A stretch of DNA of 58,232 nucleotides from a virus (lineage: Duplodnaviria; Heunggongvirae; Uroviricota; Caudoviricetes): positions 64,001-122,232 of IMG/VR virus record IMGVR_UViG_3300044843_000700. One strand, given 5' to 3'. The notes beneath the pieces were generated by a model. It searched no databases and was not told the origin of the DNA. It saw only the letters and a list, made by a program, of their open reading frames with translations. Made by a program: the position numbers and the translations under genes. Shown here piece by piece: positions 3,864-57,998 of this stretch; positions within the stretch are counted from its first letter, which is position 1; each line of letters begins with the position of its first letter.

Positions 3864-6318
3864 CATGAAGAGACGCGTAAAAATAGTAGCCATGCCTAAA
3901 GCTCAGTCTGGGCTGGAGACAAAATTGACAGCAGGATTAGGGTTTAATGCTAATCAGCTGAACTGGCCAATCCAGGCTGGAGAATTTTCTGCGCCGAATG
4001 TTTCGGTGAAAAAAGTTCTTGAGCCTACAGATTGGGACAATGCCAACTTGGAAGCAGAAAAAGGTGAGACCGTGGTAACGGATCTTAATCATGATGGTAT
4101 TCCGCAGCATTTTAAAATTGGCGGGAAGCGTCACTCTGAAGGAGGCACCCCCCTTAATCTTCCTCCTGATTCTTTCATCTTCTCTCGTGATAAAAGCATG
4201 AAGATAAAGAATGAGGACATCTTGAAGATGTTTGGTAAAAAGGAGAAACGCGGAGGATTCACTCCTGCCGATATTGCTAAACAGTACGACATAAACGAGT
4301 ACAGAAAAGTACTTGCAGATCCGGATTCTGACGATTTACAGCGTGAGACTGCTGAGATGATGATTGCTAATTACAATCTCAAGCTCGGTAAGCTTGCTCT
4401 CGCTCAAGAATCTCTGAAGGGCTTTCCTCAAGGAATTCCGCAGATTGCGATGCCCTACCTCGAAAACATGGGTATGAACCCAGAAGACTTTGTGCAAACA
4501 CAAGGTGAAAAGGATGAATCTGGTGAAGGAGATATGGCTCGTTATGGTAAGGAAGTTTTACCAAAGGCTCAACTGGGACGCCATCGCGTACGTATTATTC
4601 CGCCAGCTGGTGGATTTATGTATCCGATGAATCCAGGTTATGGTTACGGATACCCTGTAGAACAACAGCCTCAAGTTAATGTTACGCAAAGTACTACAGT
4701 TACCAAGAAACAAGAAATACCGAAAGACGCTCTAGTTATAAAGCGTAGCGATTATAAAACCGAAGAAGAGTACATTGCTGCTCGTGATAAGGCTTACAAA
4801 GAATCCCAAGGTAAACCAGTGTATACTCAGGGTTCAGATGGTAAGTATTACAGTGTAGGCACCAAACAATCTCAGATCGATGAGCAAAAGCATGTTCAGT
4901 TGATTCAAGACAGATTCTCGGATCCTGCTGTTCAACAAGCTCTTTATGACCGGACAATGGCTGCTGTAAAGGATAAGAAGAATCGCGGACGTGACATGGG
5001 CTTCTCCGAAAAAGAACTCGAGGAACTAGGACCACAGGGTCTGGCTAATCAGTTCATCGAGATGCAGACTCGTAACGTAAAGACTGGATACCTTATGGCA
5101 AATGAAGGCATCAGTTATGACTGCTTTGATAATACTACCGGTAAGAGACTAGACAAATGTAAGGACAAGGTTCCTTACACAAGTTTGGATGATATGTTTG
5201 CTAAAATTGGTGTGGGTGGACCAAAAGATAAAAAATCAGTAGGTTTTCAGCAAGCTGCCTATATTGGTTACCGAGATCTTCTTAAAGATCGCGATGCCGG
5301 TAAAATCGAGGATGAAAATCTGAAGGCTACACTTAAGCCTTTCAACATAAATTTCCAGGGAGTAAAAGATGAGGAGGGTGTTGACGTAGGTAAACAGATC
5401 TCTAAGATCGATACCTATTACACCAACACTACAACTGGTCAGATGGCCGGTATTGATCTCAATGAGATCGGGGAAAATCTTGTCCCGGAAACAGAAGAAG
5501 AGCAGAAGAAGCAGCAGGCTATAAAACACATGGGGCCTGAATATGTAGAAGAGAAAAATGCTCCTTGGTGGCTTCAAGATATTATTCGTACAGCAGGAGC
5601 CTTTGGCGATGCTATGCGTGTTAAAAAGTACATGCCTTGGCAAGCTACTCCAGCTGTTTATTTACCAGATGCAGTGCTTGCTGATCCTAATCGAGAGCTT
5701 GCAGCTAATGCTGAACAAGCAAATATCATGGCGCAAAACCTGGCAGCTTTCTCCGGACCAAAAGCTCTTTCTTCAAGAAGCTCTCAGATCCAAGGTCAGG
5801 CTGCTAAGAATGCTGCAGATATCCTTAGTCGTTATGCAAACATGAATGTTGGCACAGTTAACAATGTTGAAATGGCCAAGGCTAATATCATGAATCAAGC
5901 AGCTCAAAACCGTGCAGGTTTAGCTACCCAGCTTTATGATAAGAATGTGATCGCCAATCAACAGTTTGATAATGCGAAGAACCTTGCTCGCCAGAATCTT
6001 CGTCAAGCTTACATTGATGCTATCACAAACAAGGAGATGACCTATAACCTGAACCAGCTCTTCCCTCAGTATGCAGTGCATCCGGAATGGGGAGGCGGAA
6101 TTGAGTTTACTAAAGGTCGTCCTGTTACTCCTACTGATCCTAGCAGTCAAGAAGCTGCTCTGAACAAGTACAAAACATATCGTCATCAGCTACCTGGTGT
6201 TGACGATAATACTATCTGGAATCTGGTGAAGTCTGATATGGGACAGGGAACTGCCGGTGAAGGTAATGCTGATATGAATTACCTGAAGATGCTGATGGCT
6301 TCTCAAGGACAGATGTAA
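3856..6318 (+). CDS. Virion cargo/internal protein (crAss-like)
   Basis: 820-aa ORF; EAEKGE...GGKRHSEGG motif typical of crAss-like cargo proteins; N/Q/A-rich helical C-terminal half; located in the structural block. Confidence 0.55.
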   Translation: MTNMKRRVKIVAMPKAQSGLETKLTAGLGFNANQLNWPIQAGEFSAPNVSVKKVLEPTDWDNANLEAEKGETVVTDLNHDGIPQHFKIGGKRHSEGGTPLNLPPDSFIFSRDKSMKIKNEDILKMFGKKEKRGGFTPADIAKQYDINEYRKVLADPDSDDLQRETAEMMIANYNLKLGKLALAQESLKGFPQGIPQIAMPYLENMGMNPEDFVQTQGEKDESGEGDMARYGKEVLPKAQLGRHRVRIIPPAGGFMYPMNPGYGYGYPVEQQPQVNVTQSTTVTKKQEIPKDALVIKRSDYKTEEEYIAARDKAYKESQGKPVYTQGSDGKYYSVGTKQSQIDEQKHVQLIQDRFSDPAVQQALYDRTMAAVKDKKNRGRDMGFSEKELEELGPQGLANQFIEMQTRNVKTGYLMANEGISYDCFDNTTGKRLDKCKDKVPYTSLDDMFAKIGVGGPKDKKSVGFQQAAYIGYRDLLKDRDAGKIEDENLKATLKPFNINFQGVKDEEGVDVGKQISKIDTYYTNTTTGQMAGIDLNEIGENLVPETEEEQKKQQAIKHMGPEYVEEKNAPWWLQDIIRTAGAFGDAMRVKKYMPWQATPAVYLPDAVLADPNRELAANAEQANIMAQNLAAFSGPKALSSRSSQIQGQAAKNAADILSRYANMNVGTVNNVEMAKANIMNQAAQNRAGLATQLYDKNVIANQQFDNAKNLARQNLRQAYIDAITNKEMTYNLNQLFPQYAVHPEWGGGIEFTKGRPVTPTDPSSQEAALNKYKTYRHQLPGVDDNTIWNLVKSDMGQGTAGEGNADMNYLKMLMASQGQM

Positions 6319-48906: not shown

Positions 48907-49315
48907 TGATCACGGTATTATAGATTCTTGTTGCTAGAACATCATGGGTTTCTAAGAGAGCCACCATGTGTCTATTACTGTGAATAGCTGTTGCATGATC
49001 GTAGCCGATGTGAGTAGCCGAAACAGATGGTCCGTATCCTATATCGTATGCGATCTTTAAGAAAGCTTGACGATACATGACTATTTCTCGTTTCCGAGTT
49101 CTTAGCCTTATACCCATAGGAGTATAAAATTGCGGATCCTCTTCCTCCATTACATCGTTGACTAACTGCTCTAGCATTTTCAGCGTTATTCGAGGAAGTC
49201 CTGCTTTGTCAAAAGAGTAGTTTACAACAGGATAGACTCCGAATGTTGCATAGAACTCTTTACGAAATCGAGATACCATCTCCTCAGCCAAACGCTTCTT
49301 GTAGCTCTTTTTCAT
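48833..49315 (-). CDS. Stand-alone DnaA domain IV-like (Bac_DnaA_C) DNA-binding protein
   Basis: RTRKREIVMYRQ...IGYDHATAIHS parallels DnaA R..IV.PRQ...G.RDHTTV.HA; no AAA+ domain. Confidence 0.7.
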   Translation of the reverse strand: MKKSYKKRLAEEMVSRFRKEFYATFGVYPVVNYSFDKAGLPRITLKMLEQLVNDVMEEEDPQFYTPMGIRLRTRKREIVMYRQAFLKIAYDIGYGPSVSATHIGYDHATAIHSNRHMVALLETHDVLATRIYNTVINGYKKRFSDDGDVQQDSSGESDTE

Positions 49316-49379
49316 GGTATTATCTTTTGGTGATGTCCAGTTTTTTGCCTATATTATATAAGCTACCCCCAGACAAAAG

Positions 49380-49449
49380 GGCTGATCAAACCAGTATCTG
49401 GGACTGGATTTGCGATCGATCCCGCGGTCAGCCGCGGTTCCCAAAGTTA
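49380..49449 (-). promoter_or_regulatory. GC-rich structured intergenic element with TAACTTTG -7 box
   Basis: TAACTTTG on the - strand at 49449-49442; nested stems GGCTGA/TCAGCC and CCAGT/ACTGG plus two CCGCGG palindromes. Confidence 0.45.
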
Positions 49450-49490
49450 ATACTTTGCGGGTGAGATCGCTCACTTTAAATGCTTGAGCT

Positions 49491-49799
49491 ATGAGAAAAT
49501 GGATGAAAGAAAACATGCCTGGTACCTGGAAGTTCTTTGAGGACTTCTTCAACGGCCTGAATAATAAGCCGGGAGGACACTCCCTGAGAAAACTTCTAGC
49601 AGTAGGGTTCTTCTGGTTAACTGCAGCACTTTGTTTAAAGTACACAGATTCCAGCAACTTGTCTACTGTAGTAGGTATCCTTTGTGGTATGATTACTTCT
49701 TTGATCATCACTTACTCTGTGAGTAACATCAAGCAGATGAAGATTAAACAAGAGCCTTCCGAAGAACCTAATGTGCAGGAGGAGGGTAAAAATGAATAA
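49491..49799 (+). CDS. Putative holin (two TM helices)
   Basis: LLAVGFFWLTAALCL and VVGILCGMITSLIITYSV hydrophobic segments, charged C-tail. Confidence 0.55.
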   Translation: MRKWMKENMPGTWKFFEDFFNGLNNKPGGHSLRKLLAVGFFWLTAALCLKYTDSSNLSTVVGILCGMITSLIITYSVSNIKQMKIKQEPSEEPNVQEEGKNE

Positions 49800-50124
49800 G
49801 GCCAATCTTATAGCTTATAGCAGCTTGATTGGGATAATCATTATTCTCCTTGCCATCATTTACTTTCGCAAGCCTCAAGTGATTGTAGAGTCAGACCGGG
49901 AGAAAGTTCTTGAGGACTCAATAGCTGTGCTGAACACTAGAATAGATTCTAGTCATGTTCGACAAGCTAAAATCCAGAAGGCTTACGATAGTCTTCTTTC
50001 CATCGATCCCATTGTAATATCCAAGACCCGTGATAAGATCAAGTTTATTTACAGCACTAATAGTCCTGATGAGTTGGACAGCATCATCCGCACAAACTGG
50101 AAAACCAAATCCCGATACCGTTAA
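49792..50124 (+). CDS. Putative i-spanin-like membrane protein
   Basis: N-terminal TM (LIAYSSLIGIIIILLAIIYF) followed by a coiled-coil; follows the holin-like gene. Confidence 0.45.
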   Translation: MNKANLIAYSSLIGIIIILLAIIYFRKPQVIVESDREKVLEDSIAVLNTRIDSSHVRQAKIQKAYDSLLSIDPIVISKTRDKIKFIYSTNSPDELDSIIRTNWKTKSRYR

Positions 50125-50440
50125 GTGTTACGGTGTGAAGGAGCTCCAGTATATTGCAGCAACTTTGGTTGAAGCCAGAGCTTGCGATACACTATTGTCT
50201 ACAGCGAACGCAAAGCTTGCCAACAGAGACACTCTCATCAAAGAAAAAGATTACGAGATATCTCAACTGAACGGACAGCTCGTTCTCAAGGATAAGATCA
50301 TTGAGGTAAAGGAGCAGGAGATCAAAGAGATCAACCTGCACCTTGAAGCTGCTGAGCGTCATAAGAAATGGCTCAAGTTCGGCTGGGGATCTACGTCAGT
50401 CATCCTGGGGGGAGCCCTGGTCTACTTTATTCTCAACTGA
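50030..50440 (+). CDS. Secreted coiled-coil protein with C-terminal TM (spanin partner candidate)
   Basis: GTG start; signal-peptide-like N-terminus (SLFTALIVLMSWTASSA-Q), coiled-coil, C-terminal hydrophobic helix; overlaps the previous gene by 95 nt in another frame. Confidence 0.45.
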   Translation: MIRSSLFTALIVLMSWTASSAQTGKPNPDTVKCYGVKELQYIAATLVEARACDTLLSTANAKLANRDTLIKEKDYEISQLNGQLVLKDKIIEVKEQEIKEINLHLEAAERHKKWLKFGWGSTSVILGGALVYFILN

Positions 50441-50683
50441 GAAAGCTGTTGTCCAGGAAGCACGATCTAAAATCGTCCCGAATCCCATGATTAAAGAGTG
50501 TGCTTCTCTTATCGGAAACTTGGCACCCCAAGCCATGATGTCTTGAATGTCAAATTCCAAGTTGGAGCCGGCAACATCTTTTATCCAGGCCTTTGGTCTT
50601 TTCTCGATAGCGTCATATCCCATGACGATACCGATGTTGGTTCTACCATTAAACCAGACTACACCTATAGGTTTACTGCTCAT
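50396..50683 (-). CDS. Hypothetical protein
   Basis: 95-aa ORF, ATGA-coupled to the upstream gene. Confidence 0.6.
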   Translation of the reverse strand: MSSKPIGVVWFNGRTNIGIVMGYDAIEKRPKAWIKDVAGSNLEFDIQDIMAWGAKFPIREAHSLIMGFGTILDRASWTTAFSVENKVDQGSPQDD

Positions 50684-55225: not shown

Positions 55226-55589
55226 GCTTTACTACGATTTCTACTTGATCAGGACACAGTACTGAGCGAAAATCATCCAGTATCATAGCCATCAACGTTT
55301 GTCGATACTCAGGATCCATGTCATTCCAATGGATACAGTGTGCTAAGCGATAAACACTCAAGCGTTCTGAGGAGATATGAATACCGGTTAATTCAGATGC
55401 TTCTCTTATAGCGCAGATATCTAACCACTTTCCGGGCTTCATCATGGCGTGTAAAGAATGAGCAACAGCGTTGAACTGGATATTACCGTTTATTCCTCCA
55501 GGAGGTACACGAGATAGGATAGCATCCACATCTCTGTAAAGATTCTTAAAGTCTCCAGCTTTGCGGAGCTCTAGTCCAAATGCTTTCAT
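55212..55589 (-). CDS. Hypothetical protein
   Basis: 125-aa ORF. Confidence 0.6.
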   Translation of the reverse strand: MKAFGLELRKAGDFKNLYRDVDAILSRVPPGGINGNIQFNAVAHSLHAMMKPGKWLDICAIREASELTGIHISSERLSVYRLAHCIHWNDMDPEYRQTLMAMILDDFRSVLCPDQVEIVVKHDNG

Positions 55590-55591
55590 AG

Positions 55592-55921
55592 TTACTGATC
55601 CATTGTGCCATCTTGCACATCTGCTACCTGAACAAAACCTCTTTCGAGTTCTTGTATTACATGACGCAGATGCTCAGCTGAATCCCTCCAGCCTTTTTGA
55701 TGAGCGTTGTGAATATTTGCTACCAAACCTTGGATTAAGGTATGGGTTAAAGCACGACATCCTTCAGCTGTAGGTCTTCCTTCTGGATCAAGATATTGTT
55801 TCTTGTCCAAGTTTTCTGATACCTCCAAGCGAATATTAGTTGCCACGTGCTTTGATTTCGGAGCTCCTTTCTCATAGGAAAGCTCAATCTGGCTTACACC
55901 AGTAAAAGTAAACTGCATCAT
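55592..55921 (-). CDS. Hypothetical protein (probable start MMQF at 55921)
   Basis: The ORF-track start at 55945 lies inside the tRNA-like element; ATG 55921 avoids it. Confidence 0.6.
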   Translation of the reverse strand: MMQFTFTGVSQIELSYEKGAPKSKHVATNIRLEVSENLDKKQYLDPEGRPTAEGCRALTHTLIQGLVANIHNAHQKGWRDSAEHLRHVIQELERGFVQVADVQDGTMDQ

Positions 55922-55938
55922 GTTGCTTAGATTTTTAG

Positions 55939-56002
55939 TGGACACAAAGGGAATCGAACCCTAATCAGCCCCCTCGGGTTAGCCCCCGCCGCTTGTGTGC
56001 CC
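55939..56002 (-). ncRNA. 64-nt tRNA-like RNA with alanine identity elements, no normal D/anticodon arms
   Basis: Acceptor GGGCACA/TGTGTCC (G1-C72, G2-C71, G3.U70), discriminator A, T-arm AGGG-TTCGATT-CCCT. Confidence 0.65.
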
Positions 56003-56307
56003 TGGTTGGCCCTTGAGATTCAGTCCGGGCACTAGGATACGAGCCTAGATGAGTTGTACCTCACCGCAGTTTGAACTTAGTTTCCCTCTCTAGTCGTCCC
56101 GTTGCAGAGACACCACTCGTTAACCCATGAGCTTACGCTGGGGAAAAGTATTGCAACTTTTCGGCTGTCACATCGGTCGCGCCATGTGCCTACATTTTTA
56201 CTTCCTCCTGGAGATTTCGTTCTCCGCGTTCACCCCGTGAAGCTTGGGTCTCATCACCACTAACCATCCTTGATGAGCAATTCTAATGGATGACCTGGTC
56301 TGCTTCT
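56003..56307 (-). ncRNA. Candidate ~305-nt structured ncRNA ending in CCA
   Basis: Gap with no ORF of 60 aa or more in the track, in an otherwise tightly packed operon; many hairpins; 3' end ...GCCAACCA abuts the mini-tRNA. Confidence 0.5.
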
Positions 56308-56604
56308 TTAATTCAAGATACACCAGTCTTCAGCAAGCATATCTGTCTGAGAGGCTAACCACCCAGTAAGAATCTTTTTATCCGCAGTAAACATTCGGAT
56401 GCTTCCGAGTGCTTCAAATGAATCACCACCGATTTCTTTCTCGATTACTTCCCGTAAAGCGGGGTCATGAATGGCCTTAGTAGGAACCGTTCCGGCTGGT
56501 AATAAGAAAAGGAACATGTTCTTTCCATTCCATCCTGTACGTGCTACACGTTTTCCTTGTTTGAGAGCTTCTATAGCATCTCCGAACTTCAAGTTCTCTT
56601 GCAT
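56308..56604 (-). CDS. DUF2829 / Tad2-like anti-defence sponge protein (probable start MQENL at 56604)
   Basis: FGDAIEALKQG..V.R.GWNGKNMFLFL...TAD.KI...W.ASQTD.LAEDW signature of the DUF2829/Tad2 family. Confidence 0.85.
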   Translation of the reverse strand: MQENLKFGDAIEALKQGKRVARTGWNGKNMFLFLLPAGTVPTKAIHDPALREVIEKEIGGDSFEALGSIRMFTADKKILTGWLASQTDMLAEDWCILN

Positions 56605-56624
56605 GATAGTTGTTTTTAAGTTAG

Positions 56625-56740
56625 GGAGGACGGTAGGATTCGAACCTACGACACACGGCACCAAAAGCAGTTAAGTTGCTGAGGTAACCTTTAAAACAGG
56701 CTACACATATACGTTGCTCTACCACTGAGCTACGTCCTCC
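56625..56740 (-). tRNA. Atypical tRNA (UUG anticodon, Gln-reading; His-like G-1:C73) with a 43-nt insertion in the anticodon stem
   Basis: G-GAGGACG/CGTCCTC-C acceptor, GCTC-AGTGGTA-GAGC D-arm, GTAGG-TTCGAAT-CCTAC T-arm; deleting 56669-56711 gives ACGGC-TTTTGGT-GCCGT and a 73-nt tRNA. Confidence 0.75.
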
Positions 56741-56750
56741 ATTTATGTTA

Positions 56751-56822
56751 GACCCTGACCCGGATTCGAACCGGTAAGTCCATGTTTTATAAAGCTTGCA
56801 TGCAGAGGCTTCAACACAGGGT
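56751..56822 (-). tRNA. Degenerate tRNA-like element (pseudo-tRNA)
   Basis: ACCCTG/CAGGGT acceptor, CCGG-TTCGAAT-CCGG T-arm, weak D-arm, anticodon stem interrupted by CAAGC. Confidence 0.45.
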
Positions 56823-56892
56823 TTATTCCACACCGCTTTTCCATTCCGAGAGTGGTGAGCTCTCAACCGGTCCGTATATCGCCGGGGCATCT

Positions 56893-57270
56893 TTAGTCTT
56901 TTAGTTCTGTCCAGAATTGCTTGACCTGATTGTCTGTCATTTCTCCTTTGAGAAAGGCCATACACATGTCATAAAGAGTTTTCCATCTCCATTCTTTGGG
57001 CATAGGTTGTAGCGCATTCCAATGATTACTTGAGAATCTCCATCCTGCGCTTCCCATACGAAAAGTTACACACCAGATTTTAGCATCTCGACTATCGTAT
57101 ACACTGTCAATGTACTTTATATTCAGACCATGTGCACCAAACTTGCCCATGTTGTGGTAGATTTTGTTTCGGTCTTTTACCTGTTCATCCGACATCCATA
57201 GTGCAAACTTGTGATATTTTTGAGCAAAGTTCACAACCTCAGCAAACTGTTCAATAGTCATCGCTTCCAT
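56893..57270 (-). CDS. Hypothetical protein
   Basis: 125-aa ORF. Confidence 0.65.
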   Translation of the reverse strand: MEAMTIEQFAEVVNFAQKYHKFALWMSDEQVKDRNKIYHNMGKFGAHGLNIKYIDSVYDSRDAKIWCVTFRMGSAGWRFSSNHWNALQPMPKEWRWKTLYDMCMAFLKGEMTDNQVKQFWTELKD

Positions 57271-57998
57271 AGCTTCTTTGTTTTTGCGATTTGTGTGAGT
57301 TTTCTCCTGTTAAACAGGATAGGAAGTTGCCACTTGGAATCAGCTACGAGGCTTTCCGCATACTTACCTTGCATCTTGATCTTCTTAAAAGGCTTTCCCT
57401 TTTGAGTCAGTAAGATTGCAAAAGCTCTTTTGTAGAGCTTCTTTATCTTGCGAGGAGTACGCTTTTCCTGTAGCCATCTGCTGAGATACTTCTTAGGAAT
57501 ATTCTGTGCATGCTTCTTGCAGTAGATGTTACCTTTGGTATCGCTCATCCAGTTAGTAGGAACTTTGCACTTACAACACTTGTTCAGTATAGGAAGAACT
57601 CCCGATTTAGAAAGAGTGCAGCGTTTACAGTATCCATAACCATCTTTCCTACCACGAGCTTCAAACTCATGTCCGGGACAGTTAAGAATACCGAGCCATT
57701 TCTGATAAGCTTTTTCTTCAGCTTCTTCCACTGTTTTACCTTCGCCTCTGATAAAGCATGAAGGATTCTTAGGAAAAGCCTCGAAGAAAGCTGTAGTGTA
57801 AGTTTCTTCATGAGCTGTGGCTTCAGCCAATTCTTCTAGAGGATTTTCTCCTCCTAGTACTTTACCTAAGGAACCTTTTCCACCTAGGACAATACCTGAG
57901 TCGCCGCATTGCACTCCGCAATCTTCTGGCCATGGTTGAAGACAATCATAAGGTTTACCGAATGATCTTCGTGCTTGTTTTTGAGTTTGTGTTTCCAT
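57258..57998 (-). CDS. Conserved phage protein with Cys/His zinc-finger-like motifs
   Basis: FFEAFP...FIRGEG; C.GHEF...C..C; CCKC...YCKKH. Confidence 0.65.
   Translation of the reverse strand: METQTQKQARRSFGKPYDCLQPWPEDCGVQCGDSGIVLGGKGSLGKVLGGENPLEELAEATAHEETYTTAFFEAFPKNPSCFIRGEGKTVEEAEEKAYQKWLGILNCPGHEFEARGRKDGYGYCKRCTLSKSGVLPILNKCCKCKVPTNWMSDTKGNIYCKKHAQNIPKKYLSRWLQEKRTPRKIKKLYKRAFAILLTQKGKPFKKIKMQGKYAESLVADSKWQLPILFNRRKLTQIAKTKKLWKR

Follow-up and report, generated by a model that had tools for sequence, protein, structure and literature searches.

A phage-encoded mini-tRNA with alanine identity and no anticodon arm descends from tRNA-Ala, adjoins a pseudoknotted RNA and may serve as a processing handle

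The phage DNA analysed here carries a 64-nt mini-tRNA which, judged by alignment, is a tRNA-Ala with its decoding part removed, its accepting half kept and its middle rebuilt, apparently with a second copy of a D-loop segment. The mini-tRNA belongs to a cassette that consists of a Tad2-like gene, a 305-nt pseudoknotted RNA and the mini-tRNA itself. Quite possibly it acts as a co-transcribed tRNA-processing handle, a reading that we put forward tentatively, and the released product would probably accept alanine and would be unable to decode. The window is the whole stretch of DNA that was analysed (58,232 nt), which makes up the second half of a virus record of 122,232 bases. The mini-tRNA and its parts are as follows:

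55939..56002, minus strand: anticodon-less mini-tRNA with alanine identity (G3.U70, A73), 64 nt, recognised from its sequence, its fold and its descent from tRNA-Ala
56002-55996 (5' strand) and 55946-55940 (3' strand), minus strand: acceptor stem of the mini-tRNA, 7/7 pairs
55988-55975, minus strand: hairpin of the mini-tRNA, 4-bp GC stem and 6-nt loop
55962-55948, minus strand: T-arm of the mini-tRNA, 4-bp stem, U.U at 49:65, loop UUCGAUU

The sequence can be read as a tRNA on the minus strand only (56002 to 55939), and all of the genes surrounding it are on the minus strand. The acceptor pairs are G1-C72, G2-C71, G3.U70 (56000 with 55942), C-G, A-U, C-G and A-U. The discriminator base A73 is at 55939 and is followed by CUA, with no CCA encoded; A73 is left unpaired, because position -1 carries an A. 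Seven unpaired bases lie between the acceptor 5' strand and the hairpin, and a 12-nt G-rich linker lies between the hairpin and the T-arm. The alanine identity set (G1-C72, G2-C71, G3.U70 and A73) is present and is kept in 7/7 haplotypes. The element has the features of an AlaRS minihelix substrate, which are a 7-bp acceptor with G3.U70 stacked on the T-stem and a free A73. No 7-nt anticodon loop can be drawn in the mini-tRNA, where a 5-bp stem with a 7-nt loop and an NGC anticodon was looked for. A sequence-only reading of this DNA had described a 64-nt mini-tRNA with full alanine identity and no anticodon arm, whose core holds one 4-bp hairpin and G-rich linkers. The minus-strand sequence and the alignment bear out the first part of this description, and the hairpin at 55988-55975 agrees with the second. 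The alignment places the hairpin at the D-arm region of the parent tRNA (shared G-run) and not at the anticodon arm. Positions 11-37 of the mini-tRNA (window 55966-55992, minus strand) contain a pair of similar 12-nt segments, both of which include five consecutive G.

In the nearest-neighbour model of ViennaRNA, a competing fold has a lower energy (-24.4 kcal/mol) than the fold with the T-arm (-20.7 kcal/mol). In the competing fold the second G-run takes the place of the 5' strand of the T-stem and pairs with its 3' strand. The pair probability of the T-stem in this model is ~0.12, and the stability of the mini-tRNA fold is not above that of shuffles (z = -0.88). Since the nearest-neighbour model omits the tertiary contacts of the T-loop, the competing fold is a warning and not a refutation. 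The acceptor and T-arm had both been called intact from the sequence; this holds for the acceptor, which is 7/7 paired, and has to be qualified for the T-arm, which is one of two competing predicted folds.

ARAGORN, tRNAscan and Infernal checks had been suggested along with that description; the mini-tRNA is called neither by ARAGORN nor by the Rfam tRNA and tmRNA models. With default settings ARAGORN calls no gene in the window, and in the remaining genome it calls only the phage's regular tRNA array. The Rfam tRNA model RF00005 (threshold 29 bits) reports no match at E<=10 in the 391 nt searched; the best Rfam matches on these 391 nt are mascRNA (15.3 bits) and tmRNA models (11-12 bits, T-arm only). 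With a lowered threshold ARAGORN proposes a Val tRNA with a 161-nt intron that uses the T-arm of the mini-tRNA. This tRNA with a long intron was rejected, since all 7 acceptor pairs form with the local 5' strand. A loose descriptor (7/7 acceptor plus T-arm, 45-70 nt) has 4 matches in the genome compared with 1.4 +/- 1.2 in 100 shuffles, and the alanine-type version of the descriptor has 0 occurrences in 100 shuffles. On this comparison of sequences the mini-tRNA is no chance fold, and its similarity to real tRNA-Ala genes is more decisive for this conclusion than the descriptor counts. The mini-tRNA has no paralogues within its own genome, its internal 20-mer has no match in the metagenome collection, and its matches in GenBank phages are limited to generic T-arms.

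The mini-tRNA shares a 23-mer, which covers the T-arm and the acceptor 3' strand, with real tRNA-Ala genes on viral or metagenome contigs that are otherwise unrelated:

L003 (= L113, L114): tRNA-Ala(UGC), called by ARAGORN
L112: tRNA-Ala with anticodon UGC, acceptor 5' strand identical to that of the mini-tRNA
L115: tRNA-Ala with anticodon CGC, same acceptor and T-arm

The T-arm, acceptor 3' strand and discriminator of this family are identical to those of the mini-tRNA (27 nt), and the G-run of the D-loop is shared. The family members are complete decoding tRNAs, whereas 9 nt, U33-G35 among them, are missing from the mini-tRNA, which is without an anticodon arm. Compared with the L003 tRNA-Ala(UGC), the mini-tRNA is identical at 52/64 bases, including a 27-nt exact run, and the differences amount to 1/34 in the acceptor and T-arm and 11/30 in the middle (Fisher p = 0.0008). 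The 9 deleted nt comprise 2 of the D-stem, 4 of the 5' strand of the anticodon stem, and U33-U34-G35. In the alignment to the L003 tRNA the linker of the mini-tRNA resembles a second copy of the D-loop segment, which suggests that a local duplication of this segment took the place of the anticodon arm. The uneven differences could stem from a single rearrangement and not from long selection. Since G3.U70 is inherited from the parent tRNA, its presence by itself is no proof of selection for charging. The mini-tRNA is no copy of the tRNA-Ala that the phage encodes at genome 27504-27579, whose acceptor stem and T-arm are different. The genome of the mini-tRNA phage has no protein match to the ORFs of the 7-kb L003 locus, and the 23-mer is absent from all 185,579 bacterial species representatives.

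The L003 locus also carries a 68-nt tRNA-like element (L003:4035-4102, minus strand) with G1-C72, G2-C71, G3.U70, A73 and a short D-arm. Its 'anticodon' stem is closed by a 3-nt loop, it scores only 18.4 bits with the Rfam tRNA model, and it is located ~70 nt downstream of that unrelated phage's real tRNA-Ala. The same tRNA cluster includes a GOLLD RNA with an embedded tRNA (L003:3450-3698, minus strand; Rfam RF02032, 103 bits for the 5' half, E = 7e-28), which is cut by the search range and follows the 68-nt alanine-type element at a distance of ~340 nt on the downstream side.

The mini-tRNA is part of a row of elements on the minus strand, which runs from a partial tRNA-like element to an insert-type tRNA-like element, the Tad2-like gene, the 305-nt RNA, the mini-tRNA, 17 nt and a 109-aa gene. 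In this order, the neighbours are:

56741..56800, minus strand: third, partial tRNA-like element, T-arm and short acceptor-like stem, upstream of the second element
56624..56740, minus strand: second tRNA-like element, G-1 and C73 (histidine-type ends), D- and T-arms, 54-nt insert for the anticodon loop
56308..56604, minus strand: Tad2-like (DUF2829) anti-Thoeris sponge gene, Pfam PF11195, E = 8.9e-23, first gene of the cassette
56003..56307, minus strand: 305-nt non-coding RNA that adjoins the mini-tRNA on its upstream side, with several hairpins and, near the 5' end of the RNA, an H-type pseudoknot
55592..55921, minus strand: 109-aa gene, function unassigned, ATG 17 nt after the mini-tRNA discriminator base

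The last base of the 305-nt RNA is 56003 and the first base of the mini-tRNA is 56002. The two abut directly and are linked in all haplotypes, and the last bases of the RNA before G1 are ...ACCA. In the pseudoknot of the RNA, one pair of stem 1 shows a compensatory change from C-G to U-A (3 vs 4 haplotypes), and one pair of stem 2 changes from A-U to G.U across haplotypes. The RNA has no Rfam match at E<=10. A coding role of the region was rejected because no frame is conserved between haplotypes; a 53-aa ORF on the reverse strand of the region has 4 amino-acid changes per ~6 base changes and no homologue, and was rejected as well. In the L002/L099 haplotype a small lipoprotein-like ORF replaces the Tad2-like gene, and the last ~35 nt of Tad2 are left. 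Since these ~35 nt are retained before the 305-nt RNA, the functional 5' border of the RNA may reach into the end of Tad2. When window 56308-56604 is set beside L002:5071-5300, the ORF that was swapped in for the Tad2-like gene is 52 aa long.

The second tRNA-like element scores 50.2 bits with the Rfam tRNA model, with a 54-nt insertion. Its homologues without a usable anticodon loop are:

L002:4961-5027
L005:26-140
L006:176-291

The L002 homologue (4961-5027) has an arm with a 4-bp stem and a 3-nt loop (54.1 bits), and the other homologues have a hairpin-containing insert of ~50 nt. The ends are G-1 and C73 in the window, L002 and L005; L006 and L007 have U-1, G3.U70 and A73. This L006/L007 variant differs from the histidine-type version at -1, 70 and 73 and has compensatory changes at 2:71, 6:67 and the T-stem pair 50:64. 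The insert pattern of the second element has no match in viral contigs. In the third tRNA-like element a T-stem pair changes from C-G to U-A in L006 and L007. A match to the YrlA model near the second and third elements reaches 18.3 bits, far under the 69-bit threshold.

The 109-aa gene has 36 homologues. In other phages these adjoin Acb2/Tad1-hairpin, DUF1643 and Tad2-like genes (L092:1854-2141; L095:3323-4308), and such neighbours suggest that the 109-aa gene belongs to a variable counter-defence neighbourhood. Promoter- and terminator-like sites in 55500-57400 are not enriched over shuffles; few were found, and they are outside the 305-nt RNA and the mini-tRNA. A candidate early-promoter box has no copy near the mini-tRNA locus and is not enriched in the window. 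Pfam detected no SmpB, TROVE domain, CCA-adding enzyme, RtcB or tyrosine integrase (PF00589) in the genome.

The 305-nt RNA and the mini-tRNA were found together, via the downstream protein, in one phage lineage, where at least 13 contigs with 7 haplotypes carry them. The contigs with the cassette come from JGI, ENA and Logan assemblies, with identities of at least 95% among all copies. Wherever upstream sequence is present, the RNA and mini-tRNA are preceded by the Tad2-like gene or by its 3' remnant, and one haplotype group has lost most of Tad2 and retained the 305-nt RNA and mini-tRNA. Across the 7 haplotypes the mini-tRNA varies only by A5G (A-U to G.U, pairing kept) and C8U; the A5G polymorphism is the same as that between the real tRNAs of L112 and L003. 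When the window is compared with L002, 8.4% of the four-fold sites differ, as do 5.0% of the positions in the 305-nt RNA and 3.1% of those in the mini-tRNA. The divergence of the RNA and mini-tRNA taken together (17/367) is not significantly lower than that of the four-fold sites (15/178; chi-square by hand, p ~0.08).

The cassette is absent from L005, L006 and L007, whose 109-aa proteins have 72-83% identity; in its place an insert-type tRNA-like homologue is located directly before the 109-aa gene. A 17-nt junction is identical between L006 and the window. A tRNA-like element is immediately upstream of the gene in 5/5 of its nearest relatives. Upstream of the more distant homologues there is no tRNA-like element, so the gene does not depend on a handle. 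Neither the 305-nt RNA nor the mini-tRNA occurs at any of 80 other Tad2 loci; a general link of the two to Tad2 was rejected on this ground (absent from 80/80). Phages with a Tad2 that is 82-86% identical have odd tRNA-like genes a few hundred nt downstream (L021:2434-2624; L026:2219-2290). ARAGORN reports these as 'tRNA-???' with 2- or 4-base anticodons, and a 63-nt short form is also seen.

The position of the mini-tRNA inside a long minus-strand operon leads us to infer that it is co-transcribed with its neighbours. Host tRNA-processing enzymes would then excise it: RNase P would cut at G1, and RNase Z or a different nuclease would cut after A73. The acceptor/T-arm half of a tRNA is the part that is recognised by RNase P, RNase Z, the CCA-adding enzyme, AlaRS and EF-Tu. 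The addition of CCA after excision would lengthen the RNA from 64 nt to 67 nt; since no CCA is encoded and no CCA-adding enzyme of the phage is found by Pfam, this step would depend on an enzyme of the host. Through the cut at G1 the 305-nt RNA would acquire a defined 3' terminus (...ACCA), and the cut after A73 would release the mRNA downstream, headed by a short, A-rich leader of 17 nt. By analogy with alanine minihelices, the excised mini-tRNA would probably be alanylated, because the full anticodon-independent AlaRS identity set is kept, and it would be non-decoding.

Several observations are consistent with a processing handle. The uneven change relative to tRNA-Ala keeps a minimal substrate of RNase P, RNase Z and the CCA enzyme, and the mini-tRNA abuts the 305-nt RNA exactly, with 17 nt between it and the next ATG. 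In L005, L006 and L007 a different tRNA-like element fills this slot in front of the same gene. The linkage of the RNA and mini-tRNA is stable in at least 13 contigs and 7 haplotypes, the upstream 305-nt RNA looks structured (pair changes in the pseudoknot), and there is no excess of promoter- or terminator-like signals nearby. However, all copies are at least 95% identical, and their divergence is not significantly under that of four-fold sites; the uneven differences could reflect one rearrangement; the thermodynamic model prefers a fold without the T-arm; and G3.U70 is inherited and is unnecessary for processing. The sequence-only reading had offered two roles, an alanylatable decoy and an RNase P handle. 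The identity set and the missing anticodon arm agree with these roles, the tmRNA/SmpB version of the decoy is weakened, and the abutment of the mini-tRNA to a structured upstream RNA keeps both the decoy and the RNase P handle in consideration.

The mini-tRNA could instead be a non-functional remnant, either a tRNA-Ala pseudogene or a recombination scar at the cassette boundary, that arose by one rearrangement and is not yet eroded. This is conceivable and, on balance, somewhat unlikely. The loss of the anticodon arm and a middle that resembles a local duplication of the D-loop segment would suit a remnant, as would a cassette border that coincides with tRNA-like sequence common to L006, the unrelated tRNA-Ala that the phage has of its own, the lack of a significant conservation excess and an MFE fold that is not tRNA-like. 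Against a remnant stand an acceptor that is 7/7 paired and a T-loop that is intact in 7/7 haplotypes, with pairing kept by the sole stem substitution, the clustering in the middle of the differences from the parent family (p = 0.0008), and a deletion that takes out exactly the decoding nucleotides. In addition, the two nearby anticodon-less tRNA-like elements, whose relatives have compensatory stem changes, suggest that such elements are maintained in the lineage, which argues against a remnant. Phage att sites often copy the 3' halves of tRNAs; however, a tRNA-derived attachment site for integration was already disfavoured and has next to no probability, since there is no integrase (Pfam PF00589), both acceptor strands are present and the 23-mer occurs in 0/185,579 bacterial species representatives. 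It is also very improbable that the mini-tRNA is a Y-RNA-like partner of a Ro60-like protein. YrlA RNAs mimic tRNA, and a weak match to the YrlA model lies near the second tRNA-like element, but the match has 18.3 bits against a threshold of 69 bits and does not cover the mini-tRNA. In topology the mini-tRNA matches an ordinary tRNA, whose two ends meet in the acceptor stem, and not a permuted YrlA with a Ro-binding stem, and Pfam TROVE finds nothing in the genome.

A role in trans, the chief alternative among functional readings, is unlikely, in our view, and would make the mini-tRNA a decoy or sponge. Excised, CCA-tailed and possibly alanylated, it would titrate a factor that reads the acceptor end. 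The candidate targets, which we name with the same reserve, are SmpB/tmRNA rescue, which has been suggested for TLD-only tmRNA too, EF-Tu, AlaRS and defence toxins that modify or cut the 3' ends of tRNAs; decoding would be undisturbed. The mini-tRNA and Tad2 could then form a counter-defence cassette of RNA plus protein, an arrangement that we likewise doubt. The full alanine identity set is kept and the anticodon removed, a Tad2-like sponge gene adjoins, and the homologues of the 109-aa gene are found beside Acb2/Tad1-like and Tad2-like genes. Independent anticodon-less elements with G3.U70 and A73 exist (the 68-nt element of L003 and the insert-type elements of L006/L007), and the DS6A TLD-only tmRNA and a TLD-like tmRNA inhibitor, the latter mentioned in one passage of PMC4131195, would be precedents for a decoy. 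Since the change at -1:73 in L006 (G:C to U:A) is at the same time a simple compensation within a pair, its interpretation as an 'identity switch' is ambiguous. Against a decoy stand the absence of the GG..UCGAC motif, tmRNA models that reach only 11-12 bits and the absence of SmpB from the phage, and the cassette is limited to one narrow phage lineage, with 0/80 other Tad2 loci having the RNA or mini-tRNA. A bolder proposal, which we consider quite unlikely, is that the mini-tRNA is the RNA part of a mobile counter-defence cassette (Tad2 sponge, 305-nt RNA) and acts as an alanine-accepting, non-decoding decoy that absorbs a host factor or acceptor-end toxin or diverts ribosome rescue. Phages would then repeatedly make such decoys by anticodon deletion from tRNA types whose synthetases ignore the anticodon (Ala, His).

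Literature searches found no natural phage example of an anticodon-less RNA with alanine identity beyond the DS6A TLD-only tmRNA, and natural gene-encoded tRNAs with amino-acid identity but no decoding are hardly described. The origin by anticodon deletion from tRNA-Ala is new here, as are the linkage to a Tad2 gene and an uncatalogued pseudoknotted RNA, the slot shared with other tRNA-like elements and the competing fold. The mini-tRNA represents a second, independent route to a non-decoding RNA with alanine identity, in which the decoding nucleotides are deleted from a tRNA-Ala and the accepting half is kept. If it is processed and charged, it offers a concrete system in which the benefit of non-decoding aminoacyl-RNAs to phages can be studied, and tRNA punctuation would shape phage operons. 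If it is only a scar, tRNA-like sequences would mark joints for the exchange of accessory cassettes.

The TLD-only (message-less) tmRNA of mycobacteriophage DS6A was described by Hudson, Lau and Williams 2014 (PMC4131195), and a passage of that paper that cites Mao 2009 states that a TLD-like molecule strongly inhibits tmRNA, perhaps by titrating SmpB. A simple descriptor located the DS6A element at L116:28478-28557 (JN698994, 80 nt). It is unannotated in the GenBank record JN698994, and DS6A also encodes an RtcB-like RNA ligase (49300-50502). Like the mini-tRNA, the DS6A element is phage-encoded, falls in the range of ~64-80 nt and has G1-C72, G2-C71, G3.U70, A73 and a T-arm; both are without an anticodon, a message or an encoded CCA, and in both A73 is followed by CUA. 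In tmRNA a conserved D-loop analogue, GG..UCGAC, follows the acceptor 5' strand and leads into the P2 helix. The DS6A element keeps this analogue and a P2-like closing stem, whereas the mini-tRNA is without both (the motif is absent from its 64 nt) and descends from tRNA-Ala(UGC). The Rfam tmRNA models reach 11.5-11.9 bits on the mini-tRNA, on the T-arm only, compared with thresholds of 47-84, and ARAGORN makes no tmRNA call with default settings. A standard or permuted tmRNA spanning the 305-nt RNA and the mini-tRNA was rejected because there is no conserved tag frame and the stops differ between haplotypes. The tmRNA calls of ARAGORN were also rejected, since they appear at a lax threshold only and among 29 obvious false positives. 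On sequence grounds the mini-tRNA is not a member of the TLD-only tmRNA family; by analogy, it may act like one. The descent from tRNA-Ala, the absence of GG..UCGAC and the absence of SmpB from the genes encoded by the phage weaken the tmRNA/SmpB role that had been proposed earlier.

An acceptor stem with G3.U70 and A73 that is stacked on a T-arm suffices for alanylation without an anticodon (Francklyn and Schimmel; PMC9976931). The alanine minihelices and microhelices are laboratory constructs, whereas the mini-tRNA is a natural gene, has an extra hairpin and linkers and needs the addition of CCA. YrlA and bacterial Y RNAs (RF02553) resemble the mini-tRNA in the non-decoding mimicry of tRNA by a small RNA, which occurs in phages too. 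They differ in being circularly permuted relative to tRNA and in having a Ro-binding stem, and there is no RF02553 match of at least 69 bits on the mini-tRNA. The mascRNA of MALAT1 and the menRNA of NEAT1 (RF01684) are eukaryotic nuclear RNAs and have no sequence relation to the mini-tRNA (15.3 bits, E = 2.2, threshold 42.5 bits). To our knowledge, mascRNA does not carry the alanine identity set. These systems are alike in that a tRNA-like element of ~60 nt is located directly 3' of a longer structured non-coding RNA, and an RNase P cut in front of this element would generate the 3' terminus of the longer RNA. The arrangement of the mini-tRNA and the 305-nt RNA thus resembles that of mascRNA and MALAT1 by analogy and without homology.
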